Assembly: GCA_037441365.1 (NCBI GenBank)
Contig: JBBISG010000001.1
Coordinates: forward strand, 18,961 to 82,960
From: Nitrospirota bacterium
Lineage (GTDB): Bacteria; Nitrospirota; Thermodesulfovibrionia; Thermodesulfovibrionales; UBA9159
Reading direction: 5' to 3'
Length of the DNA stretch: 64,000 nucleotides
In this document: in pieces, positions 4,475 to 63,039 of the stretch
Layout: every line of letters starts with the position of its first letter
Position numbering within the stretch: the stretch's first letter is position 1
Position numbers and translations under genes: made by a program
Notes under the pieces: generated by a model
What the model saw: only the letters and a program-made list of their open reading frames with translations
What the model was told of the DNA's origin: nothing
The model's database searches: none

Positions 4475-5935
4475 ATGAGAGCTGCAGACTACAGCGATAC
4501 CGTTAGCTATCTGTATGGCCTGCAAAAATATGGCATAAAGTTCGGCCTCGATAACACTATAAGGTTGCTCTCACTTCTTGGCGATCCGCAAAAGTCCTTC
4601 AGCTCAATACACATAGCAGGGACAAATGGCAAGGGGTCCACATCAGCCATGATAGCCTCGATATTGAGGGCTGCTGGCTTAAAAGTAGGGCTCTTCACAT
4701 CGCCACACCTCGTGAGCTTCACAGAGAGGATAAGGGTGGATGGCGCTGAGATGCAGGAGAGCGAAGTCGTTGCGCTGACAGAGGAGATAAGAGAAGCGAT
4801 GGGCAGCGTCAATGGGGTCCCCAAAAAATCAAAGATTTTTTGGGGTACTAGCGGAGCCGACAGTCCCCTGCCCATGCTTACCCCCACTTTCTTCGAGTTC
4901 GTGACAGCGATGGCCTTTCTCTATTTCAAGAGGCGCGGTGTTGGCTGGGCTGTTGTCGAGACAGGCATGGGGGGGAGGCTGGATGCAACGAATGTAATCA
5001 CCCCTACCGTTTCAGTAATAACAGATATCAGCCTCGACCACAAGGAATTCCTCGGACAGACATTAAAGGAGGTCGCTGCGGAAAAGGCAGGGATAATAAA
5101 GGAGCGGATCCCTGTCGTCTCTGCAAAACAGGAGGCAGAGGCAAAGGAGGTGATATGCAGGGTAGCGAGGGAAAGGGCATCCCATCTGTTCATATACGAA
5201 AGAGATTTCAGGGGCATCCCAGGATCACAGGGTATTGGCGGCATTACCTTTGACTATATCGATGACTCATGCATAATCAGGGACCTGCACATCCCGCTGG
5301 CAGGGGATCACCAGCTTTCAAACGCCTGCCTTGCAATAAAGGCGTCACTGATTGCGCTGGAAGGCCGCGATATGTTATACACAATGCGTAACGGAGTTAA
5401 AAGAGACCCATCGCTTATGAGGTCCCCAAAAAATCAAAGATTTTTTGGGGTACTAAGAGAAGGGCTCGCCCTTACGAAATGGCCTGGCAGATTGGAACTG
5501 ATCAGGGATGCAGGCATGCCTGATGTATTGATAGATGGCGCTCATAACCCTGCTGCCTCAAATGTCCTTGCCGATTCCCTGAAAAGGTATTTTCTGCCCT
5601 CGTACGAGCAGATAATCCTGATACTCGGCATCATGTCGGACAAAGATATAGAGGGGATAATGAGACCACTATTGCCAATCGCATCAAAGGTTATCGTCAC
5701 AGCGCCTGACTATGAGAGGGCAGCGCCGCCGTCGAGGCTTGCAGAATGTGCCCGTTTTCTTGGATACGACACTGAGATTGCAGGCTCTGTGAAAGAGGCT
5801 GTAAAGATGGCTATGAAGATAGCGGCAGGAGGCAGTGCCCTTGTAGTTGTTACAGGTTCCTTTTATACCATAGGCGAGGTAAAGATGCTACTCGGTCAGC
5901 CTTGCAGCTGTCCCTCCATGGCAGGGCTGAGATGA
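4475..5935 (+). CDS. folC: Folylpolyglutamate synthase / dihydrofolate synthase
   Basis: 486 aa, Mur-ligase family, P-loop HIAGTNGKGST. Carries two in-frame copies of the palindromic element. Confidence 0.9.
   Translation: MRAADYSDTVSYLYGLQKYGIKFGLDNTIRLLSLLGDPQKSFSSIHIAGTNGKGSTSAMIASILRAAGLKVGLFTSPHLVSFTERIRVDGAEMQESEVVALTEEIREAMGSVNGVPKKSKIFWGTSGADSPLPMLTPTFFEFVTAMAFLYFKRRGVGWAVVETGMGGRLDATNVITPTVSVITDISLDHKEFLGQTLKEVAAEKAGIIKERIPVVSAKQEAEAKEVICRVARERASHLFIYERDFRGIPGSQGIGGITFDYIDDSCIIRDLHIPLAGDHQLSNACLAIKASLIALEGRDMLYTMRNGVKRDPSLMRSPKNQRFFGVLREGLALTKWPGRLELIRDAGMPDVLIDGAHNPAASNVLADSLKRYFLPSYEQIILILGIMSDKDIEGIMRPLLPIASKVIVTAPDYERAAPPSRLAECARFLGYDTEIAGSVKEAVKMAMKIAAGGSALVVVTGSFYTIGEVKMLLGQPCSCPSMAGLR
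4814..4848 (+). repeat. Palindromic element (PE) copy 1, inside folC
   Basis: ggggtccccaaaaaatcaaagattttttggggtac, translated in frame as VPKKSKIFWGT. Confidence 0.9.
5420..5453 (+). repeat. PE copy 2, inside folC
   Basis: aggtccccaaaaaatcaaagattttttggggtac, translated as SPKNQRFFGV (a different frame from copy 1). Confidence 0.9.
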
Positions 5936-8007
5936 TGAGGGTTTCAGGATACCTGACCGGGGTCCCCAAAAAGGGGTCCCCAAGAAGTCGAAGACTTTTT
6001 GGGGTAACAGTGTCGGAGACTTTTTGGGGTGCCCTGTTTCCTGCCTTATTTATCCTGCCTTTTATTGCCTGTCTGGTCTCTCCATCTCTTGCAGAAGAGA
6101 CGATAGCGATCCAATCGGACATCCTCGAATACGAGGCCGGAACAAACACATATACCGCAAGCGGTCATGTGAAGATTCAGAAGGGTATGGCAACAATGGA
6201 GGCCGCTCGGGCCGTATACGATGAAAAGACATCTGATCTCTCTGCAGAGGGGAGTGTCACATATAATGACCCTGATGTCTCGATAAAGGCAGAGCGGGCA
6301 GAGTTGAACCTCGAGTCAAAGACAGGCAAACTCTACAAGGCAGAGATATTTTCTAAGAAAGATAACTACCATATAACAGGTCTTGAGATCGAGAAAAAGG
6401 GCGAAAAGGAATATGCTGTTAACAGGGCATTGTTCACCACCTGTGATGCACCTGTCCCTGCATGGTGTTTCAAGGGCAGGGACGTTGATGTCGTGGTGGG
6501 CGACAGATTGAGGGCAAGGGGTGTTACCTTCCATATTAAAGACCTGCCTGTTTTATATACCCCTTATCTCTCTGCCCCGATAGAGAGGGAGAGGAAGACA
6601 GGACTTCTGTTTCCTGCCATTGGATATGTAAAATCAAAGGGCCTTCATTACGAACAGCCGTTCTTCTGGGCTATCTCAGAAAACAGGGATGCCACATTCC
6701 TGATGGATGTGTATAGCAAGAGGGGGATCGGCGAAGGGTTGGAATATAGATATATAGAACAGGACGGCTCAAGGGCAAATCTCTGGTCATACCACCTGAG
6801 GGATAAAGAACTCGGAAGGGATTTCTGGGACCTTAGATGGGTTTATGAAAACAGGGATAAGACAGACGCAATTACAGGCTATCTCAATCTGAATTACATC
6901 AGCTCGAGGGATTACTATAAAAACTACAACCCTTATATCATCAACAAGACCATGAGGTTCCTCGATCCCGCTTCTTATCTGAGCAAGACAACAGAGCGAT
7001 TTATCGAATCCACAGCAGAGGTGTCCATGGGGTCTGGAGATTCACGCCTGTTTCTGACATCGAGGTACCTCATTGACCTGAAAGATGGGACGGACGACTC
7101 GACAATCCCGCAGAGATTACCAGAGATAGGATACTTCCTCAGCCCCAGAAAGGTCGGACCTTTTGTGTTCTCCCTTTCCACAGCCCTTTCGAATTTCTGG
7201 AGGGAGGCCAACGCATCGGGCCAGCGGCTTGATATCTATCCGAGATTTGCATATTCCTTCGGAGGCGATGTCGTTGTTACACAGGTCCTCGGATTGAGAG
7301 AGACCGCCTACTCCCTCCATAATGCCGATACCTATGGCAGCTCGCCCCACAGGGAGGGTCTCGACTACAGCATAACCGCAACCACAAGGCTGGTAAAGGA
7401 TTACAGTACATTTATCCATATCATAGAGCCGTCCCTCGGATATACATTCATACCCTCGTCTAACTCGAATCTTCCTCTCTTCACCTCCACAGAGCTTTAC
7501 ACGAAGACCTCGAAGATAGGGCTCTCATTAAACAACAGGTTCATGGACAGCAATGGTGAGTTTATGAATATAAGGGTCACACAGGCATATGATTCTTTCA
7601 AAGGCGACCGTGCCTTTCTCCCCCTTGGTCTCGAGGTTGCGATCCGCCGGCCGTTAGGGCTGAGGGGAGAGGCCTCCTATGACCCGAATACAGGAAGGAT
7701 TGAAACAATAAATTCTGATGCGGGCATAAGCATATCGAAGGCATCATTCACAATAGGAGAGAGATACAACAGGTCCGAAGACATACTGTTTTACTCCTTC
7801 GGGGTTAATTACATCCATTCGAAGACGGTGTCAGTAGAGGGGAATTTCTGGTATGATGCGAAGAGGAGCGAGTTAAAGGACATTATTGCGAAGTTAAAAT
7901 ATCAGAAACAATGCTGGGGTGCGACATTGATATTCACAAAAAAGGGAAGGGACTACAGTGTATCTGTGCTCTTCAATCTGCTGGGGCTCGGGACGATCAA
8001 GATTTAG
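5902..8007 (+). CDS. lptD: LPS-assembly outer-membrane protein LptD (OstA family)
   Basis: 701-aa ORF with an OstA-like N-terminal domain (IQSDILEYEAGTNTYTASGHVKI...) and a large beta-barrel region. The start is uncertain (ATG 5902/5932 or GTG 6010) because the 5' end runs through PE copy 3. Confidence 0.8.
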   Translation: MQLSLHGRAEMMRVSGYLTGVPKKGSPRSRRLFGVTVSETFWGALFPALFILPFIACLVSPSLAEETIAIQSDILEYEAGTNTYTASGHVKIQKGMATMEAARAVYDEKTSDLSAEGSVTYNDPDVSIKAERAELNLESKTGKLYKAEIFSKKDNYHITGLEIEKKGEKEYAVNRALFTTCDAPVPAWCFKGRDVDVVVGDRLRARGVTFHIKDLPVLYTPYLSAPIERERKTGLLFPAIGYVKSKGLHYEQPFFWAISENRDATFLMDVYSKRGIGEGLEYRYIEQDGSRANLWSYHLRDKELGRDFWDLRWVYENRDKTDAITGYLNLNYISSRDYYKNYNPYIINKTMRFLDPASYLSKTTERFIESTAEVSMGSGDSRLFLTSRYLIDLKDGTDDSTIPQRLPEIGYFLSPRKVGPFVFSLSTALSNFWREANASGQRLDIYPRFAYSFGGDVVVTQVLGLRETAYSLHNADTYGSSPHREGLDYSITATTRLVKDYSTFIHIIEPSLGYTFIPSSNSNLPLFTSTELYTKTSKIGLSLNNRFMDSNGEFMNIRVTQAYDSFKGDRAFLPLGLEVAIRRPLGLRGEASYDPNTGRIETINSDAGISISKASFTIGERYNRSEDILFYSFGVNYIHSKTVSVEGNFWYDAKRSELKDIIAKLKYQKQCWGATLIFTKKGRDYSVSVLFNLLGLGTIKI
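5957..6034 (+). repeat. PE copy 3, composite (one element nested in another)
   Basis: ccggggtccccaaaaa + ggggtccccaagaagtcgaagacttttt + ggggtaacagtgtcggagactttttggggtgccc. Lies at the folC/lptD junction. Confidence 0.85.
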
Positions 8008-17439: not shown

Positions 17440-17479
17440 GGTGTCCACTCCAAAAAGTCTTTGACTTTTTGGGACCCGG
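17440..17479 (-). repeat. PE copy 5 (degenerate), in the lptE-holA spacer
   Basis: ggtgtccactccaaaaagtctttgactttttgggacccgg. Confidence 0.8.
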
Positions 17480-17491
17480 TGGTGTGGGAGC

Positions 17492-18011: not shown

Positions 18012-20636
18012 TTAATTATTTATCACTATATTCACAAGTCTGTCCCTGACAACGAAGATCTTTCTGATGCTCTTAATGCCGATGATGCCCTTTACCTTTT
18101 CATCACTCAGCGCCTTCTCTTTGATAGCATCCTCAGAGAGACCTGCCGGCACCATCAATCTTGCCCTGACCCTGCCGTTTACCTGTACAACAAGCTCGAT
18201 TTCACCTTCCTTTACGAGCTCATCATCCCACTCAGGCCATCTCTGCTCGGATATGCTCGGCGTGTTACCTATGGCCTCCCAGAGCTCTTCTGCTATATGG
18301 GGTGAGAAAGGGGAAAGCAGCAGAAGGGCGGTCTCTATTGACTGCCTCAACACCGACCATTCATCATCGCTCCGGGGCTGGAACGATGCGCACTCATTTA
18401 CGAGCTCCATGAGTGCTGCAATGGCGGTATTGAAGTGATACTCCCTTTCTATGTCTGTGGTAACCCTCTTTATAGTCTGGTGCGTCTTTCGCAATAAAGA
18501 CAGGGCTGCAGGCGAAAGGCCGCAGGCGATGGGTGCCTCTATTTCCTGCCTCTTCTGCCCTCTTTTGCCTTTTATCCATTGCCCCTTGTATTTACAAACG
18601 ATCCCCCACAGCCTGTTCAAAAACCTGTAGGCACCTTCCACCCCCCTGTCAGACCATTCGAGGTCCTTTTCAGGAGGCGCTGCAAAAAGGGAGAACAACC
18701 TCGCGGTGTCTGCCCCATATTTTCTGATGAGGTGGTCAGGGTCTACCACATTCCTTTTTGACTTCGACATCTTCTCGACCCTGCCCCGCATCACTTCTCT
18801 TCCGCAGTGTAAGCACGTGTTGTCCTTTGCCTCCTCAGGGAAAAGCCAGCCGTGTTCAGGGCACCTGATGGTCTCTTTACACACCATACCCTGAGTAAGG
18901 AGTCTTGAGAATGGCTCATCGAAATCAACAATGTCAAGGTCCCTCAGCACATGAGTGAAAAACCTCGAGTAAAGCAGATGCAAGACAGCGTGTTCAACAC
19001 CACCGATATACTGTTCAACAGGCATCCAGTATTTTATTGGTGATCGCTCATCGCTAATTACTGATTTAAAATCGATATTGCCCCTCTCAAAACAATAGGC
19101 CAGAAAATACCATGAGGAGTCAACAAAGGTGTCCATCGTGTCTGTCTCACGCCTTGCAGGGCCTCCGCACCCCGGGCAATTAACCCTTATGAAGTCCTCC
19201 GAGTTGAGAAGCGGAGAACCACCCCTGCCAGTGAACCTCACATCCTCTGGAAGTATTACAGGGAGGTCCTCCTCAGGCACAGGCACAATACCGCATTTCT
19301 CGCAATAGATGATAGGGATAGGTGTCCCCCAGTATCTCTGCCTCGATATGCCCCAGTCACGGAGTTTGTAGTTTATCGTTACCTTTCCTAATCCCTTTTC
19401 TTCTATATACTTTGCGATCGCCTTTCTTGCATCAATGCTCCTCAGTCCCGTAAACTGTCCTGAATTGATGAGCACGCCCTCACCTTCAAAGGCTTCTATT
19501 ATGCTGCTGTACTCTACCCCATCTGCTACACTACTGTTACCCCAAAAAATCTTTGATTTTTTGGGGACCCCGTCTTCAGGCACAATCACAACCTTTATCG
19601 GCAGGCCGTACTTCCTTGCAAAGTCAAGGTCCCTCTGGTCATGGCCTGGCACAGACATAATGGCGCCAGTCCCATACTCCATAAGCACGAAACTTGCTGC
19701 ATAGATAGGTATCTTCTCGTTATTCATCGGATTTATAGCATAATGACCGGTAAAAAGCCCCTCTTTTTCCTCCACCTTCCCATATCTTGCCTTCACCCTG
19801 TCCAGTCCTCCCTTGTCAGCGACAAGTTTATCGAGAAGCGGGTGGCCGGGGGCAAGGCATATGAATGTCGCTCCCCAGAGTGTGTCGGGCCTTGTGGTGA
19901 ATATCCTTATCTTTTCATCCATCCCGGCAATCGGGAAATCCATCTCTACCCCTTCACTCCGGCCAATCCAGTTCTTCTGCATGGCCACGACATTGTCAGG
20001 CCAGCCTGTCAGGCCCTCACATCCCTCAAGAAGCTCTTCCGCATAATGGGTGATTCTGAAGAACCATTGTTCAAGTTCCCTCTGGAGCACCTCACTATCA
20101 CACCTCCAGCACCTGCCGTCTATCACCTGTTCATTGGCGAGGACAGTCATGCAGGATTCACACCAGTTAACAAAGGAGGACCTTCTATATGCCAGCCCCC
20201 TTTCAAACATCTTCAAGAAGAACCACTGATTCCATCTGTAGTATTCAGGGCTGCAGGTTGCTACCTCACGACCCCAGTCATAGCTAAATCCCATGCGGTT
20301 AAGCTGTTTCTTCATATAATCTATGTTCTCGTAGGTCCACCTTGCAGGATGTATTCCCTCTTTTATTGCAGCGTTCTCGGCAGGCAGCCCGAAGGCATCC
20401 CATCCCATCGGGTGAAGCACATTGTATCCCCGCATGCGTTTGTAGCGGGCTATGACATCGCCTATGGCGTAATTGCGTACATGCCCCATATGTATCTTGC
20501 CAGAAGGATAGGGGAACATCTCGAGGCAGTAGAATTTCTCTCTGCCCGGCTCAATTATGGTCTTGTAAAGTCCCCTTTCGGACCAGTATTTCTGCCACTT
20601 TAGTTCTATCTTCTGCGGGTCATATCTCTCTTGCAA
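18012..20636 (-). CDS. leuS: Leucyl-tRNA synthetase
   Basis: 874 aa. HMGH (FPYPSGKIHMGHV) and KMSKS motifs. Contains PE copy 6 in frame. Confidence 0.97.
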   Translation of the reverse strand: MQERYDPQKIELKWQKYWSERGLYKTIIEPGREKFYCLEMFPYPSGKIHMGHVRNYAIGDVIARYKRMRGYNVLHPMGWDAFGLPAENAAIKEGIHPARWTYENIDYMKKQLNRMGFSYDWGREVATCSPEYYRWNQWFFLKMFERGLAYRRSSFVNWCESCMTVLANEQVIDGRCWRCDSEVLQRELEQWFFRITHYAEELLEGCEGLTGWPDNVVAMQKNWIGRSEGVEMDFPIAGMDEKIRIFTTRPDTLWGATFICLAPGHPLLDKLVADKGGLDRVKARYGKVEEKEGLFTGHYAINPMNNEKIPIYAASFVLMEYGTGAIMSVPGHDQRDLDFARKYGLPIKVVIVPEDGVPKKSKIFWGNSSVADGVEYSSIIEAFEGEGVLINSGQFTGLRSIDARKAIAKYIEEKGLGKVTINYKLRDWGISRQRYWGTPIPIIYCEKCGIVPVPEEDLPVILPEDVRFTGRGGSPLLNSEDFIRVNCPGCGGPARRETDTMDTFVDSSWYFLAYCFERGNIDFKSVISDERSPIKYWMPVEQYIGGVEHAVLHLLYSRFFTHVLRDLDIVDFDEPFSRLLTQGMVCKETIRCPEHGWLFPEEAKDNTCLHCGREVMRGRVEKMSKSKRNVVDPDHLIRKYGADTARLFSLFAAPPEKDLEWSDRGVEGAYRFLNRLWGIVCKYKGQWIKGKRGQKRQEIEAPIACGLSPAALSLLRKTHQTIKRVTTDIEREYHFNTAIAALMELVNECASFQPRSDDEWSVLRQSIETALLLLSPFSPHIAEELWEAIGNTPSISEQRWPEWDDELVKEGEIELVVQVNGRVRARLMVPAGLSEDAIKEKALSDEKVKGIIGIKSIRKIFVVRDRLVNIVINN
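19537..19572 (-). repeat. PE copy 6, inside leuS
   Basis: gttaccccaaaaaatctttgattttttggggaccccg, read on the minus strand as GVPKKSKIFWGN. Confidence 0.9.
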
Positions 20637-27542: not shown

Positions 27543-27609
27543 TCCTTGTCATTGACGTCTATCACTTACACCGCTGATTATAATTGTCTATGCAACCCTT
27601 GTGCCTACT

Positions 27610-27645
27610 GTTACCCCAAAAAGTCTTCGACTTTTTGGGGACCCC
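27610..27645 (-). repeat. PE copy 7, in the hpt-queD spacer
   Basis: gttaccccaaaaagtcttcgactttttggggacccc. Shares the flank ctactgttacccc with copy 6. Confidence 0.9.
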
Positions 27646-29985: not shown

Positions 29986-29995
29986 TCATGCCTCA

Positions 29996-30020
29996 CCGGG
30001 GTCCCCAAAAAGGGGTGCCC
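29996..30020 (+). repeat. PE copy 8 (minimal: the two end-halves only)
   Basis: ccggggtccccaaaaaggggtgccc, abutting the stop codon of the cimA-like gene. Confidence 0.75.
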
Positions 30021-31594
30021 TATTCCCTTAAAAGCTTATACTCGATGCTGTCAACGAGGGCCTGCCATGATGCCTCTATGATATTTTCAGAGACGCCTAC
30101 AGTCCCCCATCTCCTATCCTCGTCTCCTGACTCCACAAGCACCCTCACCTTTGCCGAGGTCCCCTTGCCTGCAGTGAGGACCCTCACCTTGTAATCATGG
30201 AGCTTCACATCCCTCAGCTGGGGGTAAAACTTTTCGAGCGCCTTTCTTAGGGCATTGTCAATGGCGTTGACAGGGCCGTTTCCTATGGCAGCAGTGTGCT
30301 CGATATGACCTCCAACCTTCACCATAATGGTGGCCTCGCTTAATGATTCCTCTTTCTCCTTTCTCTTCTCTACAATCACGCGGAACCCTATAAGGTCAAA
30401 GAACCTTTTATGGAGCCCGAGGGCCTTTTTCATGAGAAGCTCAAAGGATGCCTCTGCTCCTTCGAACTGAAATCCCTGGTTTTCGAGCTCCTTTAGTTCT
30501 GTCACTATCTCCTGAACCTGGGGTGAATCTGGGTCGAGCCTTATCCCAAATTCAGACGCCTTTCTGAGGATATTGCTTTTGCCTGCAAGGTCTGATATTA
30601 AAACCCTCTGGGAGTTTCCGACGAGCTCGGGCCTTATATGTTCGTACGTCTCAGGCCTTTTTATAATTGCACTAACATGAATTCCCCCTTTATGTGCAAA
30701 GGCGCTATCGCCAACAAACGGCTGTCTCTTAAAGTGTCTGAGATTGGCTATCTCATTGATGTATCTCGAGACCTCCCTGAGCCTCCTGAGCTGCTCAGCG
30801 GTGATGACCTCAAGGCCAAGCTTCAGCTGGAGGTTCGGTATGACAGAGCAGAGATTCGCATTCCCGCACCTCTCTCCAAGCCCGTTTACTGTCCCCTGAA
30901 CGTGGGATACCCCGCATTGCACTGCAATGATGGAATTAGCAACAGCGCATTCAGAGTCGTTGTGGGCATGGATCCCGACATCAACGGACAGTGTCTTAAC
31001 GACCATCTCTGTTACAGTCCTTATCCTGTCTGGTAAAGTTCCGCCATTGGTGTCACAGAGCACAACACAGTCAGCACCTGCATCCTGGGCAGCAATGAGG
31101 CACTTCATCGAAAATTCAGGGCTGTCCCTGTATCCATCGAAGAAGTGCTCAGCATCGAAAAAGACCTTATCGGTATGTCTCTTGAGATAGGAGATCGAAT
31201 TATGTATTATCTCGATATTCTCCTCCAGAGTTATTCTCAATGCCTCCCTTACATGAAAATCCCATGTCTTACCAACGATGCAGACTGCGCTGGTCTTTGA
31301 ATTTAGGAGTGCCTTAATATTTGCATCGTCTTCAACCCTGTGCCTTGGCCTGTGGGTGCTTCCAAAGGCAACAATCCTCGCATTGTCAAGCGGGATCCTT
31401 CTCACCTTCTTAAAATATTCCACATCCTTTGGATTAGAGCCGGGCCAGCCACCCTCAATGTAATGGATGCCCAATTCATCGAGCTTCTCGGTAATCCGTA
31501 GTTTATCCTCCACAGAAAAGGATACATCCTCTGTCTGTGCCCCATCCCGGAGGGTGGTATCGTATATCTCTATCCTTCGTTCAGCCTTTTCCAT
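30020..31594 (-). CDS. cimA: Citramalate / 2-isopropylmalate synthase family (likely citramalate synthase)
   Basis: [18 protein letters not shown] and a LeuA-type C-terminal regulatory domain. The start could instead be 31645, overlapping ask. Confidence 0.8.
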
Positions 31595-38630: not shown

Positions 38631-38680
38631 GGGCACCCCAAAAAGTCTCCGACACTGTTACCCCTTTTTGGGGACCCCGG
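38631..38680 (-). repeat. PE copy 9 (intermediate composite)
   Basis: Its reverse complement equals copy 3 minus the internal 28 nt. Lies in the spacer between the PLC-like gene and moeA. Confidence 0.85.
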
Positions 38681-41632: not shown

Positions 41633-41842
41633 TCACTTTATCTTTTTAAGACCCTCTATCGTTGCCTTAATCACACCGGTGTCCCCAAAAAGTCTCTGAC
41701 TTTTTGGGGTGCTCTGTTCCTCTGGTTCTGGTTTACATACAGGGCAGTACGCTTCTCCCAGGTCCAGCAGGCATACATGTCCGCATTCAGGACAGCATAC
41801 GCACCTATCTACTAACTGCTGGCAGACCGGACATGTCTCCAT
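41633..41842 (-). CDS. Small Cys-rich zinc-ribbon-like protein
   Basis: 69 aa with CPVC..., CVCCPEC and CPVC motifs. The C-terminal third is encoded by PE copy 10. Confidence 0.4.
   Translation of the reverse strand: METCPVCQQLVDRCVCCPECGHVCLLDLGEAYCPVCKPEPEEQSTPKSQRLFGDTGVIKATIEGLKKIK
41677..41713 (+). repeat. PE copy 10
   Basis: ccggtgtccccaaaaagtctctgactttttggggtgct, read on the minus strand as STPKSQRLFGDTG. Confidence 0.85.
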
Positions 41843-43385: not shown

Positions 43386-43424
43386 GGGCACCCCAAAAAA
43401 TCAAAGACTTTTTGGGGACCCCGG
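43386..43424 (-). repeat. PE copy 11, at the left edge of the AT-rich block
   Basis: gggcaccccaaaaaatcaaagactttttggggaccccgg. Confidence 0.9.
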
Positions 43425-43624
43425 TCCGGATGTCAGGGTCTTTAGCTGTGCTGGATTCCAGTTCAGGGGGGGCAGCTTCTATATTATTGAACGGACTAAT
43501 CTGATAAAAAGGGAGGTGATGGGAGTGAAAATTATAAGTGTAATATTGTAACTACAGTAGTAGTGGGAGTGGTTTTTCTCAGAAACTTAGTTTAAATTAA
43601 ATATTTTTGAAAGGGGAGGTTAAT

Positions 43625-52298: not shown

Positions 52299-52360
52299 GC
52301 CCCTATAAAATTATCAAAGTTGAAAGGAAAATACAAAAGACCTCTTAAGGGTCACTGGCA

Positions 52361-56444: not shown

Positions 56445-59438
56445 TTAATCTGTCAAACCTATCTTTTCTTTATCCAGTTCCCTGGAGTATATCTCGACCC
56501 TGTCCCCGCCTCTTTTAATCGCCTGGGCAAGGGCACTTTCACAGCACAGGATAAAATCCTCTGTGGTCTGGCCGTCAAGGAATGTAAGCCCCACGCTGGC
56601 AGTTATCTTTCCCTTGGGCTGGCTGTCTCCGTGAACAAAGGGATAATTCCTTATTATGGCATTAAACCGATTGCCGAGAGAGAGGGCTGCCGAAAGGACT
56701 GTATTCGGGAGAATTATGGCAAAGGAATCTCCCCCATACCGCACAACAACATCAGAACCCCTTATGTTCTTTCTCAAAAGCTCTGCAATCTTCCTCAGGA
56801 CATTATCTCCCTGCTGTTGTCCGTAGTCCTTTATATATTGACCGAAAGAGTCCACATCAAGGATCATGAGGTTAAGAGGCTGCTTGTATCTCACTGCCCT
56901 TTCAATCTCCTGGGCCAATCTGATCTGAAAATACCTGTGGCTGAAGAGGCCTGTCAGCTCATCCACGAGACCTGCCCTCTTGGGGTAAAGGACCTCGATC
57001 TCCATTATGTGGTCGATGAGCTCGTTTATATCAAATCTGTGCTTCTTTATTACCCGCTCTATCTCCCCCACAAGGCTGATCCTATCCTCTACTGATATGT
57101 CCTTTTCTGTAAGGATGAATATAGGAATGTTCCTTGTTGGGGGATTCTCCTTCAGCTCCCTCACCGCTTCAAAGCCGAGCATATCAGGGAGTTCAAAGTC
57201 GAGAAGTATCACATCAGGCCTCAATGCTGTAGCAAGCTCAACCCCTCTCTTGCCCTCCATTGCCGAGTATACAAGGAATTCCTGGGGGTTGAGGTATTCC
57301 TTCAGGTAATTCCCATCTCCGCCTGATTCTATTATCAGCACGGTAGTCGGATATCTTCTCCCCGATGCCATGCCAAGCCCATGGAGTTTATCCAGAAGGG
57401 CATCCCTGTCGAGGGGTTTCAGAAGATAGTCTGTTGCACCAAGGGCAAAGGCAAGATCCTTATTGTCGATGATGGAATGTATGAGGACAGGGATGCTGGA
57501 TGTTACCTCATCACCCTTCAGTGACTGCAGCACCTCCCACCCATCCTTTTTAGGAAGCATTATATCGAGCAATATGGCAAACGGCCTCAATTTCCTTGCC
57601 TTTTCTACGGCCTCTTCGCCATCAAAGGCATGTGCAACCTTGTAGCCTGCCTGGGTGAGGTGGATGGTAAGGAGTTCAGCGCTTGAGGGGTCATCCTCTA
57701 CAACGAGTATCAATGGTGCTTTCTCCTTAGTCCACGGGTAGTTCAGGCTGACGGCCTCGAGCCCTTCTACCTGTTCCCCCATTGCCTGCAATGTAAGGGG
57801 GATGTAGAAAGTAAATTTGCTCCCTTCGCCGAGTTTACTCTCCAGCGTAATCCGTCCACCGTGCAGTTCGACAAGCCTTTTTGACAGGGCAAGGCCGAGG
57901 CCTGCACCGCCATACTGCCTCGAAAATGCAGTGTCTGCCTGCTCAAATTCATCGAATATCCTTTCTCTATCCTCAGAGCTTATACCTATCCCTGTATCCC
58001 ATACAGAGAATCTCAGAAATTCATGGCCTTCTGAATCGCCTCTCCCCATTTCCTTTTCGACGGTGACGCCAACCTCACCACCCTCGGGAGTAAATTTTAT
58101 TGCATTCGACAGGAGATTATAAAGCACCTGCTTGAGCTTGACCCTGTCTGCTGTTATGGAATCGGCATCATCGCTTATGAGAAGATTGAGGTCGATGGAT
58201 TTCCTGTCGGCCATCGGCTTCATTATGCTGAATACCTCGGAGACGACATCCTCCACACGGAAGCTCTCATAGCACATATCGTATTTGCCTGCCTCTATCT
58301 TTGCTATGTCAAGGACATTGTTTATGATCTCGAGGAGGTGCTTGCCCGATGAGTTGATGTTCTTGACATATCTCTCCTGATTCTCCGTGAGATCTCCGAA
58401 GGTCTTTTCCATGAGGACATTGGAAAAACCTATGATAGAGTTAAGGGGTGTCCTCAGTTCATGGCTCATATTTGCTATAAATCTGGACTTGAGCTGGCCT
58501 GCACGCTCAAGCTCTCTATTTGCCCTTTCGAGTTCAGCGGTCCTTTCCATTACCCTTACCTCTAACCTCTCACTAATATCAGAAAGCTCGACCTCCCTCT
58601 CCTTAAGCCTTTTGCTGAGTCTCAGTCTGCTAAGGGCAAGACCTACGATCTCTGCCAGGATGGCGATGGCCTGCCTCTGCCTCTCTGAAAACTGCCTTGG
58701 CTTAAAGTCATCAAGATAGATCATCCCGCAGACAAGGCCGTCAAGAAAAAGGGGAGATATGAGAATCGCCCTTATCCCTTCATCTATAAGTGCAGGATTG
58801 TTTATATAATCCACCTTCAGCACATCATTTATCACGACCATCTCTTTTTTGCTGAGAACCATATCCGTTAAGCCGCCCTGCATTACCTTCCAGCGCCTGT
58901 TCTCTGTAAATCTCTTGCCGAGTCCCTTTGATGCAATAAGGTGCATCTCATCCCCCTCTACCATCGCTATGCTGCCTGCAGGTGAATCACTCATCTCAAG
59001 GGCCATTGAGAGGATAAACTCCATAAGCTCATTGAGATTATCTGTCCTGTAAACATACTCTGCAATTGCGAGGAGCCTTTTTCTATCCTCTGATGTTTTG
59101 TAGAGCTCGATCATCGCTTTCTTATATCTCTCCATGGCCCTCCAGAGGAGCCTTGCAGCCTTTGCATCGATAACATCTATCCTGCTAAAGAGGGTCCTCA
59201 TGGTTTCGCTAAGTTTTGCATCACCTGTAAGATTGATAATGACCTCTGGTCTGACTGCGGTGGCAAGGATATTGATGTCTTCAAAGACAGGAATGCCCCA
59301 TTTCTGCGCAAGGAGCGCCCCGGGGGCCTCCGGGTCTCTTTCATAAATCCCGACAACCTCTACCTCAGGGTCTCCCCTGAGCATCGAGATCATGGTGCTG
59401 CCGGCAATGTTGCCTCCGGCTATTGCGAGTTTAGCCAT
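56445..59438 (-). CDS. Multidomain hybrid sensor: Rossmann-like N-terminus, GAF, HisKA/HATPase, two REC domains, degenerate GGDEF (GGDSF)
   Basis: 997 aa. H-box MSHELRTPLN, GGAGLGLALS, two REC domains with acceptor Asp (ILLDIMLP, ILLDFELP), C-terminal RYGGDSFAIIL. Confidence 0.85.
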   Translation of the reverse strand: MAKLAIAGGNIAGSTMISMLRGDPEVEVVGIYERDPEAPGALLAQKWGIPVFEDINILATAVRPEVIINLTGDAKLSETMRTLFSRIDVIDAKAARLLWRAMERYKKAMIELYKTSEDRKRLLAIAEYVYRTDNLNELMEFILSMALEMSDSPAGSIAMVEGDEMHLIASKGLGKRFTENRRWKVMQGGLTDMVLSKKEMVVINDVLKVDYINNPALIDEGIRAILISPLFLDGLVCGMIYLDDFKPRQFSERQRQAIAILAEIVGLALSRLRLSKRLKEREVELSDISERLEVRVMERTAELERANRELERAGQLKSRFIANMSHELRTPLNSIIGFSNVLMEKTFGDLTENQERYVKNINSSGKHLLEIINNVLDIAKIEAGKYDMCYESFRVEDVVSEVFSIMKPMADRKSIDLNLLISDDADSITADRVKLKQVLYNLLSNAIKFTPEGGEVGVTVEKEMGRGDSEGHEFLRFSVWDTGIGISSEDRERIFDEFEQADTAFSRQYGGAGLGLALSKRLVELHGGRITLESKLGEGSKFTFYIPLTLQAMGEQVEGLEAVSLNYPWTKEKAPLILVVEDDPSSAELLTIHLTQAGYKVAHAFDGEEAVEKARKLRPFAILLDIMLPKKDGWEVLQSLKGDEVTSSIPVLIHSIIDNKDLAFALGATDYLLKPLDRDALLDKLHGLGMASGRRYPTTVLIIESGGDGNYLKEYLNPQEFLVYSAMEGKRGVELATALRPDVILLDFELPDMLGFEAVRELKENPPTRNIPIFILTEKDISVEDRISLVGEIERVIKKHRFDINELIDHIMEIEVLYPKRAGLVDELTGLFSHRYFQIRLAQEIERAVRYKQPLNLMILDVDSFGQYIKDYGQQQGDNVLRKIAELLRKNIRGSDVVVRYGGDSFAIILPNTVLSAALSLGNRFNAIIRNYPFVHGDSQPKGKITASVGLTFLDGQTTEDFILCCESALAQAIKRGGDRVEIYSRELDKEKIGLTD

Positions 59439-60430
59439 CCCATTATCCTCTCTGCCTCCGTCCTGGTTATCATATCGATAAAGTACTCAACAAGGTTCGG
59501 GTCCCATTGTCCGCTATACCTTTCGTGTCTGAATATCTCTATGACCGCATCGACTGACCGGCCCTTTCTGTAGGGTCGTTTTGAGACCATGGCATCGAAG
59601 GAGTCAGCGATGGAGAGTATCCTCGCATTAAGAGGTATATCCTCTCCTGAGAGGCCGTCAGGGAAACCACTGCCATCCCACCTCTCGTGATGACTCCTTA
59701 TCGCAGGCAGCGCCCATTTCAGGGAGACGAGGGGCCTGCATATCTCCTCTCCAATTATAGTATGCCGTTTTACAGTCTCAAACTCTTCATCTGTGAGACT
59801 GCCCCCTTTGCAGAGGATCTCCGAACTCAATCCTAACTTACCTATGTCGTGAAGTATACCTGCCTTTTTCATCTGTTCCTGCTCTTTTCTGCCGAGGCCG
59901 AGGAATGAAGCAAAGGACATGGAGACCTCACCAACCCTCGTTGAATGCCCCCTGGTATAGGGGTCTCTCGACTCCATCGCTACAGCAAGGGTGAGTATGA
60001 TATTTTCTGAATGCTCAAGCTCATCGTAAAGGGCCTTTAACCTCAGGAGGGACCTTACCTTTGTAATCAGTTCCGTTGCATCAAAAGGTTTGCTTATAAA
60101 GTCATCAGCCCCGCACTCAAGACCTGTTATCCTGCTCTGTCTATCTGTGAGGGCAGTAAGGAGGATGACGGGGAAAAACTGCCTTCCATTGGAGTTCTTT
60201 AATCGCCTGCAGAGCTCATAACCATCCATGCCGGGCATCATTACATCGAGTATCGCAATGTCTATCCTACTGGATTCGAAGATGTTGAGTGCTGAGTAGG
60301 CATCTGGAGCGGTGAATACATCAAAGCCGGCCCCCGCAAATACTGTTTCGAGTAATTCGAGATTGGACAGCATGTCATCCACCAGAAGGACAGACGGCTT
60401 CTCAGTACTTAAACCCTCGAGATGGATCAT
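59420..60430 (-). CDS. Response regulator with HD-GYP phosphodiesterase domain
   Basis: 336 aa. REC (AILDVMMPGMDG), then HDIGK and HHERWDGSGFPDG. Confidence 0.88.
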   Translation of the reverse strand: MIHLEGLSTEKPSVLLVDDMLSNLELLETVFAGAGFDVFTAPDAYSALNIFESSRIDIAILDVMMPGMDGYELCRRLKNSNGRQFFPVILLTALTDRQSRITGLECGADDFISKPFDATELITKVRSLLRLKALYDELEHSENIILTLAVAMESRDPYTRGHSTRVGEVSMSFASFLGLGRKEQEQMKKAGILHDIGKLGLSSEILCKGGSLTDEEFETVKRHTIIGEEICRPLVSLKWALPAIRSHHERWDGSGFPDGLSGEDIPLNARILSIADSFDAMVSKRPYRKGRSVDAVIEIFRHERYSGQWDPNLVEYFIDMITRTEAERIMGWLNSQ

Positions 60431-60519
60431 AATAAATTAAAGCATCCTCTTAAATGTTTGTCAAGATTTTTCTTTAATATTTTATGCTTATACTAAAAAC
60501 CTAACTTAGAACTTAACAT

Positions 60520-60735
60520 TTAAAGCAGGCGCAACCCTGCATAATAGCAGCAGCACTCATTATCGAGGTCGTTGATAAATGCCCTCTCTATCCCATCCTC
60601 GAATAGAACCCTGACAAGACAGAATCCACCAGCAAGGCTTGAGTGGCTTTCTTCAACCACCCTTCCATTACCCCAGGAGTGATACCTTATATGTTTGACC
60701 CTATCGCCAACCCTCAGATACAGTTTAGGTCCCAT
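60520..60735 (-). CDS. Small hypothetical protein
   Basis: 71 aa. GDRVKH...WGNGRVV resembles a small SH3/Tudor-like motif. Weak call. Confidence 0.35.
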   Translation of the reverse strand: MGPKLYLRVGDRVKHIRYHSWGNGRVVEESHSSLAGGFCLVRVLFEDGIERAFINDLDNECCCYYAGLRLL

Positions 60736-60802
60736 GATTAATTATAACCCAATCCCATTAGCCACAAGATCACCGGGTCCATGAAAGGACTCAGCCTCAG
60801 TC

Positions 60803-61666
60803 TTATCTTATATATGTCCCATAGAGGGAGTATACAAAATGGCCTGTAATGGTAATGGCGTCCTTCCCCCACTCATCTGGAAGGGGCCAGAAGGGCTCTG
60901 CTTCCTTCAGGGCCTTCATGGCTGCCTCATCAAGGCTCCTGTGACCAGATGTCCTTACAAGCTCTGTATCGCCGAGCATCCCATTCTTATTTATCGTGAA
61001 CCTTATATAAAGGTCGCCATAGATGCCTCTCGATGCTGCTTCATTAGGGTATTTCCATATCCCCTCTATCCTCTCCTTCAGTCGCATCATATAGGTATAA
61101 TATTTAAGCTCTTTTGTCTCAAATGTGATGCCATTGTCCCTTCTAACATCCTCCCTTTTTGCAAATCTCTCAACAATTTCTCTATCAAACAGTTTCTCCC
61201 TTAGCGGCATCGGGGCATTCGTCACGCCCTGCCTTTTCTGCGACTCGATCGCCGGAGGGCCTCCCTTAACCTCCTGACGGGCCTCGACGCCCCTATCCCC
61301 TGCACTTAAATCCCCTGTGCCGGATTCTGGGGTCGGTGCAGTGAGGGGGTTAAGTGGAGGGGTAGAGGGCCTGATCTGAGGCAATGACCCTTCAGGACCA
61401 TAATCCCCAGAAGTCGGAGACTTCTGAGGGAAGTAGTGTCTTTGACCCTTTTTGGAGACCTCCTTTGGGATAGCCGTAGGGCGAGAAGACTCCTTTATCT
61501 CATCAGGCGATACAAGACGGGTTATAAAGGGCGTGTCGCTTTCTTTTTTCTGCACAGGGGTCAGAAGGATTAACAATCCTACCAGCAGGTGGATTGCCAG
61601 CGAGACTGCTACAGGCAATGTCCATCGGGGGTATCTATATTCTTCCAGTATATAGCCTTTTATCAT
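60803..61666 (-). CDS. TonB-family energy transducer
   Basis: 287 aa. N-terminal TM, Pro-rich spacer, TonB C-terminal domain (YP..A...G..G.V.V.F.I...G). Confidence 0.8.
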   Translation of the reverse strand: MIKGYILEEYRYPRWTLPVAVSLAIHLLVGLLILLTPVQKKESDTPFITRLVSPDEIKESSRPTAIPKEVSKKGQRHYFPQKSPTSGDYGPEGSLPQIRPSTPPLNPLTAPTPESGTGDLSAGDRGVEARQEVKGGPPAIESQKRQGVTNAPMPLREKLFDREIVERFAKREDVRRDNGITFETKELKYYTYMMRLKERIEGIWKYPNEAASRGIYGDLYIRFTINKNGMLGDTELVRTSGHRSLDEAAMKALKEAEPFWPLPDEWGKDAITITGHFVYSLYGTYIR

Positions 61667-61881: not shown

Positions 61882-63039
61882 CTATCCGCCATTCAGACTG
61901 TCTGTTGTCTGAAAGATGTAACCCCTGAAGATATTTATATACGACAGAAGGCTCCCCTTTCCCTGGTCCTTTCTGAGCCATAGCTTCATGGACACCTCCT
62001 GGACCTCAGGTCTCTTGTGTAACTGAACGAGTCTTTCTGCCCGGGAATCGTCCTTCAGAAAGAACGCCCAGAGCCTCTTCATCAATGAGAATCGTGCATG
62101 AAACCTCTTCTCCCAGAGCCTTCTATACTCACCTATTCTTTTGCTGATTATTGCCATAGCAGCCAGCTCTCCTGACTTCATAGCATAGTATATGCCCTCA
62201 TAGCTCAATGGCATTACCTGACCTGCTGCATCACCAGCAAAGAGAACCCTGCCGAGATTGTATATATCCCCCTGCCAGAGGGGTATCCTGTATCCCCTCA
62301 CAGAACCGCATCGGGGTCCCCAGAAAGTCTCTGACTTTTGGGGGTGCCCGCCTGTCCCGAGTCCCCTCTTTTCCAAAAACCTCTGATAGAGGGCCTTTAT
62401 TCTATGGTGGTCGAGGGAACCTGTTCCAACAGAGATGCCCTCTTTCTGGGGGAAGACCCATGAATAAAACCCGGGCGCATGTGATGAACCAAACCAGAAT
62501 TCACAAAAATCTGTATCCTCTTTTATCCTACCAGATATGGTAAGAAAGGATGGGACAGGTCTGATATTGAGTGCAGCCCTTACCCTCGAGTTAATGCCGT
62601 CAGCAGCAATCACATAGTCAGCCTGAACATTGATAGTCTTACCTCTTGCCATTAGCTCTGCAGTCACAGTCTTACCGACATCTATGAAGCGCCTGAATTC
62701 AGCATTGAGAACCATTGCACCAGCCTTTTCTGCCTCTGCTCTGAGGACAGAGTCAAAGTCACCTCTTTCTACAATAGCGATGAAGCCGCCAGTGAGTTTT
62801 ATATAAAGCGTATCGCCTTTTGGGGATACAACCTTTATAGTGTCAACGCGCCTCCTGATAGGATATTCGGGTATCCCGAGTTCGTGAAATGAGGTGGAAG
62901 GGATGCCTCCACCGCAGGGTTTGATAAAGGAGGGATTTCTTTCTATAAGAAGGGTGTCTATACCGCCCTGAGCAAGGAACCTTGCAGCAGATGAACCGGC
63001 AGGTCCGCCACCGATGACTAATGCCTGAGCCCTGAGCAT
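61882..63039 (-). CDS. Geranylgeranyl-reductase-family FAD-dependent oxidoreductase
   Basis: 385 aa with GGGPAGSSAA dinucleotide motif. Contains PE copy 12 in frame. The C-terminal tail is encoded by an 18-mer also found at 41017. Confidence 0.8.
   Translation of the reverse strand: MLRAQALVIGGGPAGSSAARFLAQGGIDTLLIERNPSFIKPCGGGIPSTSFHELGIPEYPIRRRVDTIKVVSPKGDTLYIKLTGGFIAIVERGDFDSVLRAEAEKAGAMVLNAEFRRFIDVGKTVTAELMARGKTINVQADYVIAADGINSRVRAALNIRPVPSFLTISGRIKEDTDFCEFWFGSSHAPGFYSWVFPQKEGISVGTGSLDHHRIKALYQRFLEKRGLGTGGHPQKSETFWGPRCGSVRGYRIPLWQGDIYNLGRVLFAGDAAGQVMPLSYEGIYYAMKSGELAAMAIISKRIGEYRRLWEKRFHARFSLMKRLWAFFLKDDSRAERLVQLHKRPEVQEVSMKLWLRKDQGKGSLLSYINIFRGYIFQTTDSLNGG
61894..61911 (+). repeat. 18-mer cagactgtctgttgtctg (copy B)
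   Basis: Exact match to 41017-41034. Overlaps the last codons of the FAD oxidoreductase gene. Confidence 0.9.
62312..62349 (+). repeat. PE copy 12, inside the FAD oxidoreductase gene
   Basis: cggggtccccagaaagtctctgacttttgggggtgccc, read on the minus strand as HPQKSETFWGPR. Confidence 0.85.

Follow-up and report, generated by a model that had tools for sequence, protein, structure and literature searches.

Among the closest described counterparts of the repeat studied here are the Rickettsia palindromic elements (RPE-1 to RPE-8), selfish palindromes that, like this repeat, lie in frame in housekeeping genes, including those for tRNA-related enzymes. The original prediction took them as the precedent for in-frame palindromes, and as an analogue they stand; such insertions are, however, not confined to Rickettsia, since intragenic REPs, both GTAG and CGTC, are described in Opitutus, Thauera, Xanthomonas and others, and RPE-4 and RPE-6 are CGTC-tagged REPs (PMC3733652), a tag that is missing here.

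We analyzed a 64-kb window, i.e., the whole stretch of DNA under study, from an uncultured member of the Thermodesulfovibrionales (Nitrospirota), and found that all 12 of the coordinates at which a palindrome had been predicted carry the element (Table 1). The half-site GGGGTCCCCAAAAA, with up to 2 mismatches allowed, matches the window 16 times, against 0.73 expected, a count equalled in 0 of 100 shuffles of the window. The consensus unit of the window copies is GGGGTCCCC-A5-(3-bp stem, 3-4-nt loop)-T5-GGGGT(A/G)NC, and the whole element, 38-42 nt in length (about 39), is one hairpin, CCCC-A5-(3-bp stem and small loop)-T5-GGGG, with GGGGT boxes on its flanks. Typical copies form 12-bp DNA hairpins whose folding energies lie between -11 and -12.6 kcal/mol (z-scores between -4.7 and -6.4), and a 34-nt core is identical between the copies at 4814 and 19537. 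Stop codons are missing from five of the core's six reading frames, and this holds for every copy.

Table 1. Copies of the palindromic element in the 64-kb window
Form	Position	Strand	Location	Peptide
A-type	4812..4850	+	in frame in folC, residues ~114-126	NGVPKKSKIFWGT
A-type	5417..5455	+	in frame in folC, residues ~315-327	MRSPKNQRFFGVL
Compound, B-type shell with A-type nested at 5973-6010	5948..6036	+	probably lptD 5' coding region, signal-peptide n-region	
A-type, GCAA loop	13511..13549	+	just past lepB, in N-terminus of small membrane-protein ORF	
Degenerate B-type	17440..17482	-	lptE-holA spacer	
A-type	19534..19572	-	in frame in leuS, editing domain	GVPKKSKIFWGNS
A-type	27608..27645	-	queD-hpt spacer	
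Truncated B-type, outer boxes only	29995..30022	+	ilvC-cimA spacer	
Compound B[A] with internal deletion	38631..38680	-	moeA-phospholipase C spacer	
B-type	41677..41715	+	in putative 69-aa CxxC-rich ORF (41633-41842, minus strand)	STPKSQRLFGDT
B-type	43386..43426	-	divergent spacer, pyrF / AT-rich block	
B-type	62312..62350	+	in frame, reverse orientation, in geranylgeranyl-reductase-like FAD oxidoreductase (Pfam)	GHPQKSETFWGPR

Each copy in the window is either a singlet or a nested/compound form, with no inverted doublets among them. In the compound at 5957-6036 the A-type copy is nested inside the loop of the B-type copy; the copy at 38631 is this same compound minus the block between two GGGGT repeats, and the copy at 29996 is a shortened 28-nt form without the inner stem-loop, the three making up a deletion series (5957 to 38631 to 29996). 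We found no GTAG tag at a fixed position in the window copies: GTAG only spans the junction of 2-3 copies (19537, 27610 and 13511), at a variable distance, and the empty leuS site indicates that the TAG of the GTAG there belongs to the target. No consistent CGTC tag was present among the window copies either. The sequence (T)TTCC abuts 5 of 6 B-type copies, and the right end of the A1 copies is always GGGGTAACAG followed by T; the left ends, however, vary, and only five empty sites are informative. Strand bias is not decisive, with copies oriented 8 to 5 on the plus strand and about 8 to 3 when counted relative to transcription.

Translation of the window reproduced all five peptides that had been quoted from it, and the five copies originally called intragenic are so, that in the 69-aa ORF putatively; if anything this count was too low, with the lptD compound and the copy at 13511 as extra cases, and 6-7 of the 12 window copies are intragenic. 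The leuS insert is predicted to be read in LeuRS as GVPKKSKIFWGN, a peptide missing in 118 of 120 orthologues; alignment with the LeuRS of T. thermophilus (1H3N) shows a gap at its position, and a 98%-identical LeuRS lacks exactly the 13 codons of the insert. About 120 FolC orthologues are likewise without the insert peptides, a 96%-identical FolC lacks exactly the 13 codons of the insert, and at the second folC copy (5417..5455) the whole segment of ~25 aa is missing in most orthologues. In the AlphaFold (AF2) model of FolC, pLDDT is <50 at residues 118-130, i.e., at the first insert, and 51-62 in the region of the second; the two inserts are the model's only internal loops of low confidence, the rest being confident, which places them in internal loops predicted to be disordered, in line with the loop insertions that had been proposed. 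Loop length in the FAD oxidoreductase varies among 18 orthologues, the closest of which (64% identity) is without the peptide. In these conserved genes the insertions are in frame, absent in orthologues and at surface positions. Translational bypass or splicing of the inserts was also considered; with the inserts in frame and stop-free, plain translation would be the simpler course.

The compound copy is probably inside the lptD coding region, where it lies in frame after an ATG that overlaps the folC stop codon, although lptD may alternatively start at an internal GTG. The lptD orthologue in the related contig L117 is called from the same folC-stop-overlapping ATG, and L117 has only TA at the site, between MMRVS and VFPALFIL, so that the window shows a net gain of 87 nt, i.e., 29 codons. 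The copy at 13511 had been placed in a spacer downstream of lepB, but it lies within the 5' end of a small membrane-protein ORF; two related contigs, L001 and L117, have a called gene of 127-128 aa that spans the copy. The 17440 copy was rightly placed between genes, because the holA start (Met21; L001 call of 294 aa) is downstream of it.

We compared the window with two 99%-identical strain contigs (L001 and L116), with L117 (~92% identity) and with L002. Five sites (leuS, folC, 29996, 27610 and lptD) are polymorphic among genomes that are 92-99% identical. For example, the exact 39 nt of the leuS copy are missing in L001, the exact 39 nt of the first folC copy (folC-1) are missing in L116, and the 29996 copy is a clean 28-nt insertion with respect to L001 and L002, both of which are empty. 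At all three of these sites the comparison of filled and empty alleles leaves an ambiguity of 0-1 nt (1 nt at the folC-1 boundary), and none has a target duplication. The 27610 site is empty in L002 and in L001 holds a 10-nt footprint, CTGTTACCCC, which equals a deletion between two ACCCC repeats, and the lptD compound copy is missing in L117. This last genome also has two extra copies beside tRNA-Sec, with a tRNA-spacer insertion of 41 nt that shows a 6-nt microhomology, CCCCGA, and L002 carries a tandem duplication of two 42-nt units in leuS. Other copies are kept or decaying: the 13511 copy is conserved in L001 and L117, the 17440 copy is kept in L001, and the second folC copy is kept in L116 and decayed in L117, where the folC-1 site also holds a decayed copy and the folC copies carry stem-breaking substitutions. 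One assembly that is without three copies retains two others. Since L117, the outgroup, shares the folC-1 copy with the window while the sister strain L116 is without it, the copy was either lost exactly or re-inserted at the same site. The ends of the inserted segments are not fixed (C+38 nt at leuS, AT...TACTA at folC, 41 nt with microhomology at the tRNA), and, unless the subfamilies are unlike in this respect, such variable ends would agree poorly with an enzyme that cuts and pastes precisely. Judging from these alignments, the element is young and unstable.

Matches to the element's shell occur in at least 14 phyla with identical outer arms, an identity that is imposed by the search patterns; the inner stem co-varies across phyla and is often closed by GNRA-type loops (GCAA, GTAA, GTGA and GAGA). 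Because the shell is spread across many phyla, lineage-specificity fails, and on these sequence matches the element is not specific to Thermodesulfovibrionales. Other genomes carry the shell in multiple copies, also as tandem arrays with a period of 41-42 (three-unit arrays occur outside the window), and RecJ is one of the real proteins that hold it in frame. Copies are also associated with rRNA: one of ~41-44 nt occupies loop C of the 5S rRNA, in four or more distinct Caldatribacterium-like sequences, and one in Carboxydothermus lies in the rRNA spacer, 15 nt upstream of 23S rRNA. Many Clostridia copies are directly followed by a purine-rich, GGAG-type tract. In some Nitrospirae MAGs a separate MITE-like palindrome of ~230 nt has the hairpin at its apex, and the shell was also found at the center of other repeats. 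A preference for the apex of larger hairpins was nevertheless rejected, since flanks pair barely above permuted flanks (mean of 7.0 outer pairs versus 6.0; 8 or more pairs in 49% versus 40%), so that the nested cases are anecdotes rather than a rule. We also rejected carriage by phage, with 3 matches in 2.9 million viral contigs, and a riboswitch or leader, as the AGGAGG after many Clostridia copies might suggest, with downstream ORFs that are unrelated or absent. No Rfam family fell on the element at gathering and E-value thresholds in the window and 31 other loci. The Rfam matches in those loci were tRNAs, one 5S gene and rRNA ends. Our literature search found the motif string in no paper, no account of such repeats in Nitrospirae and no description of a 5S insertion in Atribacteria.

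A search for mobilizing enzymes showed that the 64-kb window encodes no transposase gene, and no neighbor protein family recurred when 2,962 ORFs from 113 loci were clustered all against all. The ~1.7 Mb of fetched flanks contain one RAYT-like ORF, at locus L074, and phmmer with E. coli RayT and the L074 RAYT as queries found L074 only among all fetched loci. An element copy lies 10 nt from the 3' end of this RAYT-like gene, and another two are found within 1.5 kb; the gene is itself flanked by classical GTAG REPs.

We consider the repeat likely to be a selfish miniature palindrome, non-autonomous and of the REP/RPE kind, that is tolerated where it is in frame. The copy excess, the polymorphic sites, the lack of target duplication and the orthologues without the peptides all support this reading, and the original prediction of a miniature element, mobile or recombinogenic, that is tolerated in the form of loop insertions withstood the checks set to refute it. 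The comparisons show that the element inserts without duplicating its target and that it is also lost, in some cases exactly and in others through slippage between the GGGGT/ACCCC direct repeats that it carries, the latter giving rise to footprints and shortened forms. Intragenic copies survive only with a length that is a multiple of three and a stop-free frame, and in addition in a disordered surface loop or a signal-peptide n-region; copies in genes are predicted to be read out as a P-K-K...F-W-G peptide of ~13 residues. We infer that the conserved outer boxes are recognized by a putative mobilizing machinery and that the inner stem-loop is free to vary, the new insertion at 29996 having no inner stem-loop at all. 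Our best guess at the mechanism, though on balance a doubtful one, is that a Y1 HUH transposase (RAYT/IS200-like) encoded elsewhere in the genome moves the element in trans as a single-stranded DNA hairpin. We hold just as tentatively that this may be a pan-bacterial hairpin element, with the shell GGGGTCCCC-A5...T5-GGGGT/GGGGTGCCC, that a putative shell-recognizing, trans-acting enzyme moves within genomes and occasionally between phyla. It would then colonize whatever sites can take an additional helix or a loop of 13 residues without harm: loops in proteins and in other repeats, signal peptides, rRNA spacers and 5S rRNA loop C.

Copies could also arise and be lost with no dedicated enzyme, by replication template switching, slipped-strand mispairing and gene conversion from copy to copy, aided by the direct repeats and by hairpin stalling, which we regard as unlikely. 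Deletions that span exactly from one GGGGT/ACCCC repeat to another (seen in the 27610 footprint of L001 and in the series from 5957 through 38631 to 29996), the CCCCGA microhomology in the L117 tRNA spacer, the varying segment ends and the tandem duplications (in L002 leuS and as three-unit arrays in other genomes) are all consistent with such processes, but the events at leuS, folC-1 and 29996 move the whole unit exactly with a microhomology of only 0-1 nt, and slippage alone would hardly yield dispersal to unlinked sites and many phyla. A host-selected RNA or DNA module, in which the arms are conserved for a function such as mRNA or rRNA stabilization, processing or protein binding, seems to us quite improbable: the identical outer arms in at least 14 phyla with a co-varying inner stem and GNRA-type loops, the retention in Caldatribacterium-like 5S loop C, the Carboxydothermus copy upstream of 23S rRNA and the GGAG-type tracts that many Clostridia copies directly precede speak for it, yet arm identity was set by the search patterns and is hence not an independent sign of constraint, presence differs between 99%-identical strains, the L117 folC copies are decaying with their stems broken by substitutions, the downstream genes are mutually unrelated and no Rfam family matches. 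That the peptides are ancestral, or that the copies are assembly or chimera artefacts, is exceedingly unlikely; we found no point in favor, and against it stand the alignments of ~120 LeuRS and ~120 FolC orthologues without the peptides, the strain contigs without exactly 39 nt, and the independent Logan and JGI assemblies, which share some copies and miss others.

Read as a selfish palindrome, the element offers a clear and datable case outside Rickettsia in which selfish DNA adds peptide loops to essential enzymes (LeuRS, FolC and probably LptD), and, since one species has both filled and empty alleles, their effects on fitness and structure are directly measurable. At ~39 nt, with no REP superfamily tags and an apparent need for the outer boxes only, it would be a compact substrate for finding the mover of a REP-like hairpin. 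Intragenic REPs outside Rickettsia were already known; the multi-phylum shell, its place at the center of other repeats and in an rRNA spacer, and the copies in loop C of Caldatribacterium 5S rRNA are unexpected. If the cross-phylum copies are one family, the element would also explain a bacterial 5S rRNA insertion, and protein loop insertions and rRNA expansion would share a single mechanism; were the pan-bacterial reading true, it would naturally give rise to expansion segments in the proteins and rRNA of bacteria. In practice, assemblies will break at these repeats, gene callers will be misled at start codons, and Thermodesulfovibrionales proteins will look more novel in sequence than they are.

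Among known systems, the 5S rRNA of the archaeon Halococcus morrhuae has a 108-nt insert and thus also tolerates an extra helix, whereas the insertion described here is in loop C of a bacterial (Caldatribacterium-like) 5S rRNA; the Halococcus insert is not known to stem from a dispersed repeat. MITEs (Correia/NEMIS, RUP, ERIC, Nezha and the Coxiella MITEs) are likewise non-autonomous inverted repeats that may land in frame, but they are 70-300 bp long with IS-derived terminal inverted repeats and duplicate their target site, in contrast to the single hairpin of 38-42 nt found here and its three clean empty sites without duplication. IS200/IS605 derivatives (PATEs), which move by peel-and-paste, share the dependence on a hairpin, the lack of target duplication and exact excision; they have distinct left and right subterminal hairpins rather than one and insert 3' of a fixed 4-5-nt target, whereas at our copies a target is only hinted at, by the TTCC beside the B-type copies. 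REPs and the REPIN-RAYT system (Di Nocera 2013, PMC3733652; Bertels and Rainey 2011, PMC3116915) resemble the element in being 20-40-nt GC-rich, multi-copy stem-loops, short dispersed imperfect palindromes (here at 12 sites in 64 kb) that lie mostly between co-directional genes and occasionally within genes, including those of tRNA synthetases, that form dimers, clusters and arrays, and that are gained and lost from strain to strain without target duplication. Unlike REPs, the element has no GTAG/CGTC tetranucleotide at a fixed position and an intragenic fraction far above the REP norm, and unlike REPINs, which are inverted doublets, it occurs as singlets, its clean indels being single 39-nt units, with no element-flanked RAYT in the window and ~1.7 Mb of fetched flanks. 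With the RPEs it shares translation, predicted here, into extra surface peptides and a presence that varies among close relatives; the two probably lack sequence similarity, and, since host phylum and unit length differ, we treat the RPEs as an analogue only. RPE-1 is ~100-150 bp long, against a unit of 38-42 nt here, and resides in an obligate intracellular alphaproteobacterium, whereas the present host is a free-living member of the Thermodesulfovibrionales and the shell extends over multiple phyla.

Searching the window for the half-site GGGGTCCCCAAAAA with up to two mismatches, we identified 16 matches where 0.73 are expected, a number that none of 100 shuffles reached, and the element is present at all 12 positions named in the original prediction. 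Copies typically form a 12-bp hairpin, CCCC-A5/6-RTC-N3/4-GAY-T5/6-GGGG, with GGGGT on its 5' side and T(A/G)NC on its 3' side, and DNA folding of the copies gives -11 to -12.6 kcal/mol (z-scores -4.7 to -6.4). Two subfamilies are seen among the window copies, an A type ending in GGGGTA(A/C)(C/T)AG and a B type of the form ACCGGGGTCCCC...GGGGTGCCC. Three sites make a series: in the compound copy an A copy is nested in a B copy, between the A-run and the inner stem of the latter; the copy at 38631 is this compound minus the block between two GGGGT repeats; and the copy at 29996, which is only CCGGGGTCCCCAAAAAGGGGTGCCC, reflects a further deletion of this kind. In the core, five of six reading frames are stop-free, and both orientations encode P-K-(K/N/S)...F-(W/F/L)-G peptides, as had been claimed from the sequence; translation also regenerated all five of the peptides originally quoted.

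Coordinates of element copies and associated features (window positions, or fetched loci where an L-number is given)
Feature	Position	Form	Context	Related contigs
folC copy 1	4812-4850 (4814)	A	folC	missing in L116, clean 39-nt indel, 1-nt ambiguity
folC copy 2	5417 (5419)	A	folC	kept in window, L116 and L117 (3/3)
Compound copy	5957-6036	B outer shell (5957), A copy (5973)	lptD	missing in L117
Copy	13511	A	5' end of 127-128-aa ORF	common to window and L001, also in L117
Copy	17440	B, degenerate	upstream of true holA start	common to window and L001
leuS copy	19534-19572 (19537)	A	leuS	missing in L001, clean 39-nt indel; L002 has two tandem 42-nt units, different subfamily
Copy	27610	A		L001 retains only CTGTTACCCC; L002 empty
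Copy	29996	B, 28-nt short form		missing in L001 and L002, no target duplication
Copy	38631	B		
Copy	41677	B	putative 69-aa CxxC-rich ORF	
Copy	43386	B		
Copy	62312	B		
tRNA-Pro(CGG) and tRNA-Sec	4056-4236		adjacent	L117 tRNA-Sec flanked on both sides by extra A-type copies (n = 2), neither in window
Swapped segment	24349-24490	142 nt	between MazG-like and acyl-CoA dehydrogenase genes	unrelated 39 nt at L001 16295-16333
AT-rich block	43.4-57 kb	GC 0.36-0.45	FtsX/MacB-type permeases, two-component regulators	
Copy-free stretch	43430-61400	18 kb	takes in AT-rich block	
5S rRNA genes with insert	L156 14641-14799, minus	B	also L122, L124, L130, L181, L185, L221, L238	
Spacer copy	L110 128-161		Carboxydothermus islandicus 16S-23S spacer, 15 nt upstream of 23S rRNA 5' end	
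Composite repeat	L146 10380-10412	CTGAGGGGCTTAATGC[hairpin]GCCCTGCCCCGAAG		
RAYT-like ORF	L074 4755-5279, minus		Xanthobacteraceae	
Three hairpin copies	L074 3264-6456		one 10 nt from 3' end of RAYT-like gene, two within 1.5 kb	
MITE-like palindrome	L005, L086, L102, L126, L127, L135, L152, L160, others	~230 nt	terminal inverted repeats CAGCGATAAGGAT/ATCCTTATCGCTG	

Three related contigs were recovered, L001/L116 from one Logan sample (SRR24079482; ~99% DNA identity to the window) and L002 and L117 from two JGI metagenomes (~92-95% identity), and these demonstrate that copies come and go between close relatives. For example, the leuS site reads ACACTA[...]TCTTCAGG in the window and ACACTATCTTCAGG in L001, with no target duplication, and since the units in the same leuS loop of L002 belong to a different subfamily, they represent an independent event. 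The more distant L117 contains, at the identical position, a decayed form of the first folC copy in which 9 of 39 positions have changed, mostly in ways that disrupt the stem, which means that either this copy was lost exactly in the sister strain L116 or the site was hit twice. At 27610, the remnant in L001 corresponds to a deletion between two ACCCC repeats, and the first extra copy at the L117 tRNA-Sec is a 41-nt insertion between 6-nt repeats, CCCCGA. Assembly or chimera artefacts, a possibility raised with the original prediction, do not account for these differences, because the Logan assembly without three of the copies retains two others and because an empty junction requires spanning reads.

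Of the 12 copies, four certainly lie in frame within real genes, two probably do and one may. The leuS copy lies in the editing domain, where the Thermus thermophilus enzyme (1H3N) shows a gap, and both folC copies fall where the T. maritima and L. casei enzymes have no residues. The compound copy comes after the lptD ATG that overlaps the folC stop, from which the L117 orthologue is also called (MMRVS|VFPALFIL); the site holds 89 nt in the window vs 2 in L117, i.e., a net 29 codons, which add K/R-rich sequence to the n-region of the signal peptide. This copy is probably translated, although a GTG within the element could act as a new start. Of the copies assigned to spacers, the one at 17440 is indeed in a spacer, but the one at 13511, placed downstream of lepB, lies within an ORF for which two related contigs have a gene call.

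Comparison with orthologues argues against the peptides being ancestral, the other alternative named at the outset. Among 120 LeuRS relatives, element-type peptides are present only in the window and in one orthologue (P0002), and another with 98% identity (P0001) differs by exactly the 13 residues; among 120 FolC relatives, they are limited to the three closest, and an orthologue with 96% identity (P0121) lacks exactly the first insert. In the reductase, the loop differs in length between orthologues, and the nearest of those representatives (64% identity) has no such peptide. In an AlphaFold2 model of FolC (49 sequences; mean pLDDT 85, pTM 0.87), the only low-confidence internal segments, 118-130 and ~300-320, are the two inserts, consistent with the predicted tolerance of the element as surface loops. 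Other Thermodesulfovibrionales orthologues contain different repeat-like peptides in the same leuS and first folC loops, including IVGAGLVPAQESGQPQGLP, PPLPPFAKGGRGGI / PHPPLGKGGLRGD, QKSEVRSQ and NSELRTPNSEL, and these sequences suggest that several unrelated repeat families may colonise protein loops across this order.

The gene map of the window, based on Pfam and on gene calls on the related contigs, runs from groEL/ES through tRNA-Pro, tRNA-Sec, folC and lptD to lepA, lepB, a small membrane protein, ribE and ribBA, then holA, lptE and leuS, then queD, hpt, psd, ilvC, cimA/leuA-like and aspartokinase, then moeA, phospholipase C, pepA, psiE, a SIS-domain protein and pyrF, with TonB and a geranylgeranyl-reductase-like flavoprotein after the AT-rich block. 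The best named LeuRS relatives are from Thermodesulfovibrionales/Nitrospirota MAGs (identity ≤80%), which places the window in an uncultured member of this order. The copy-free stretch, where ~3.4 copies are expected at the average window density, is consistent with the AT-rich block being a recently acquired island. The segment that is swapped in the 99%-identical strain bears no relation to the hairpin family.

When one genome per species was scanned for the pattern GGGGTCCCCAAAAA-N7-13-TTTTTGGGG, at least 113 stretches matched, where by our own estimate ~0.1 are expected in random sequence (596 Gb, both strands, 7 gap lengths, 23 fixed bases). The hosts listed are Bacillota (many Clostridia, Carboxydothermus), Nitrospirota, Alpha- and Betaproteobacteria, Desulfarculus, Chlamydiae, Chloroflexota, Saccharibacteria, Bacteroidia, Myxococcota, Acidobacteriota, Eremiobacterota, Campylobacterota and Thermotogaceae; arm identity in these matches, as in those of the scans below, is set by the search patterns themselves and fits common descent or convergence. 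A narrower metagenome scan gave at least 120 stretches, and 2.9 million viral contigs only three. Among the matches listed, several genomes are multi-copy, some with three-unit tandem arrays (period 41-42 nt), and the inner stem co-varies around loops that are often GCAA, GTAA, GTGA or GAGA. In-frame copies are found in RecJ of Nitrospiraceae UBA665, where the DHH domain is interrupted, in an M23 peptidase of another Thermodesulfovibrionales MAG and in a 2,331-aa methylase-helicase of a Helicobacteraceae MAG. The hairpin also occupies exactly the apex of a dispersed MITE-like palindrome in Nitrospirae MAGs, and in alphaproteobacteria such as the Xanthobacteraceae of L074 it sits within the loop of a (second) GTAG REP. 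Statistically, no overall preference for hairpin apices was supported. In gut Clostridia (L008, L028, L053, L056, L079, L082, L104 and others), a conserved AGAGGA(G/C)GAG...GGAGCGA tract and then another hairpin lie beyond the element; the sequence downstream has no convincing ORF, no Rfam family matches, and this arrangement may be a larger non-coding unit.

At least eight 5S rRNA genes among the metagenome matches listed carry a B-type hairpin of 41-44 nt in loop C, between GGAAG and TTAAGC, giving genes of ~159 nt. The example checked directly (L156) matches Rfam RF00001 at 60.9 bits over 159 nt, and its insert at the loop is 44 nt long. Aligned with one another, the eight genes resolve into at least four distinct 5S sequences, and a protein beside an insert-bearing 5S gene is 89-91% identical to that of Candidatus Caldatribacterium (phylum Atribacterota). 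A composite repeat, present at L146 and ~45 similar loci among the metagenome matches listed, has a right flank whose reverse strand resembles the 5S segment TTAAGCCCCTCAG next to this insertion site; our check found no 5S gene at L146, and the resemblance may be a coincidence or a captured fragment.

The element is therefore a dispersed, multi-copy sequence that inserts without target duplication, nests, and is lost exactly as well as by slippage between internal direct repeats. Survivors are biased to in-frame lengths (39, 39 and 87 nt in genes vs 28 and 41 nt in spacers). The strain indels, the orthologues and the FolC model support the mobile or recombinogenic miniature element originally proposed, and we consider it likely to be selfish and REP/RPE-like. 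The outer boxes would be the part recognised by the mobilising machinery, because the newly inserted copy at 29996 has nothing else and because the inner stem-loop varies freely across genomes while the shell is kept.

A single-strand HUH (Y1, RAYT/IS200-like) mechanism is suggested by the hairpin, by the lack of target duplication and by the exact excision; it is our best candidate for how the element would move, but we rate it as less likely than not. Against it, the inserted segments have differing left ends, the copies are singlets, and they bear no consistent GTAG or CGTC tag. Pfam and gene calls showed no transposase encoded within the 64-kb window, and no protein family recurs beside copies in the fetched loci compared. 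Within ~1.7 Mb of fetched flanks there is one RAYT-like ORF, in L074 (1e-7 vs E. coli RayT), and it is bracketed by classical GTAG REPs (GTAGGGGCGACCCACCGGGTCGCCC). The main rival, that replication and recombination alone drive the spread, is favoured by the footprints and the 6-nt microhomology but weakened by events with 0-1 nt homology.

Our analysis thus confirms the original observation and supports its interpretation. Within the library searched, we found the motif in no paper, and no description of such repeats in Nitrospirae or of 5S insertion in Atribacteria; the occurrence of the shell across phyla and its insertion in 5S rRNA would surprise a specialist and merit follow-up. REPs inside tRNA synthetase and DNA-repair genes of several phyla have already been listed, and GTAG REPs tied to RAYTs (Di Nocera et al. 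2013, PMC3733652). The element differs from MITEs in size and target duplication, and from the GTAG/CGTC REP families in tag and doublet, but it behaves as the Rickettsia palindromic elements and the intragenic GTAG/CGTC REPs do.
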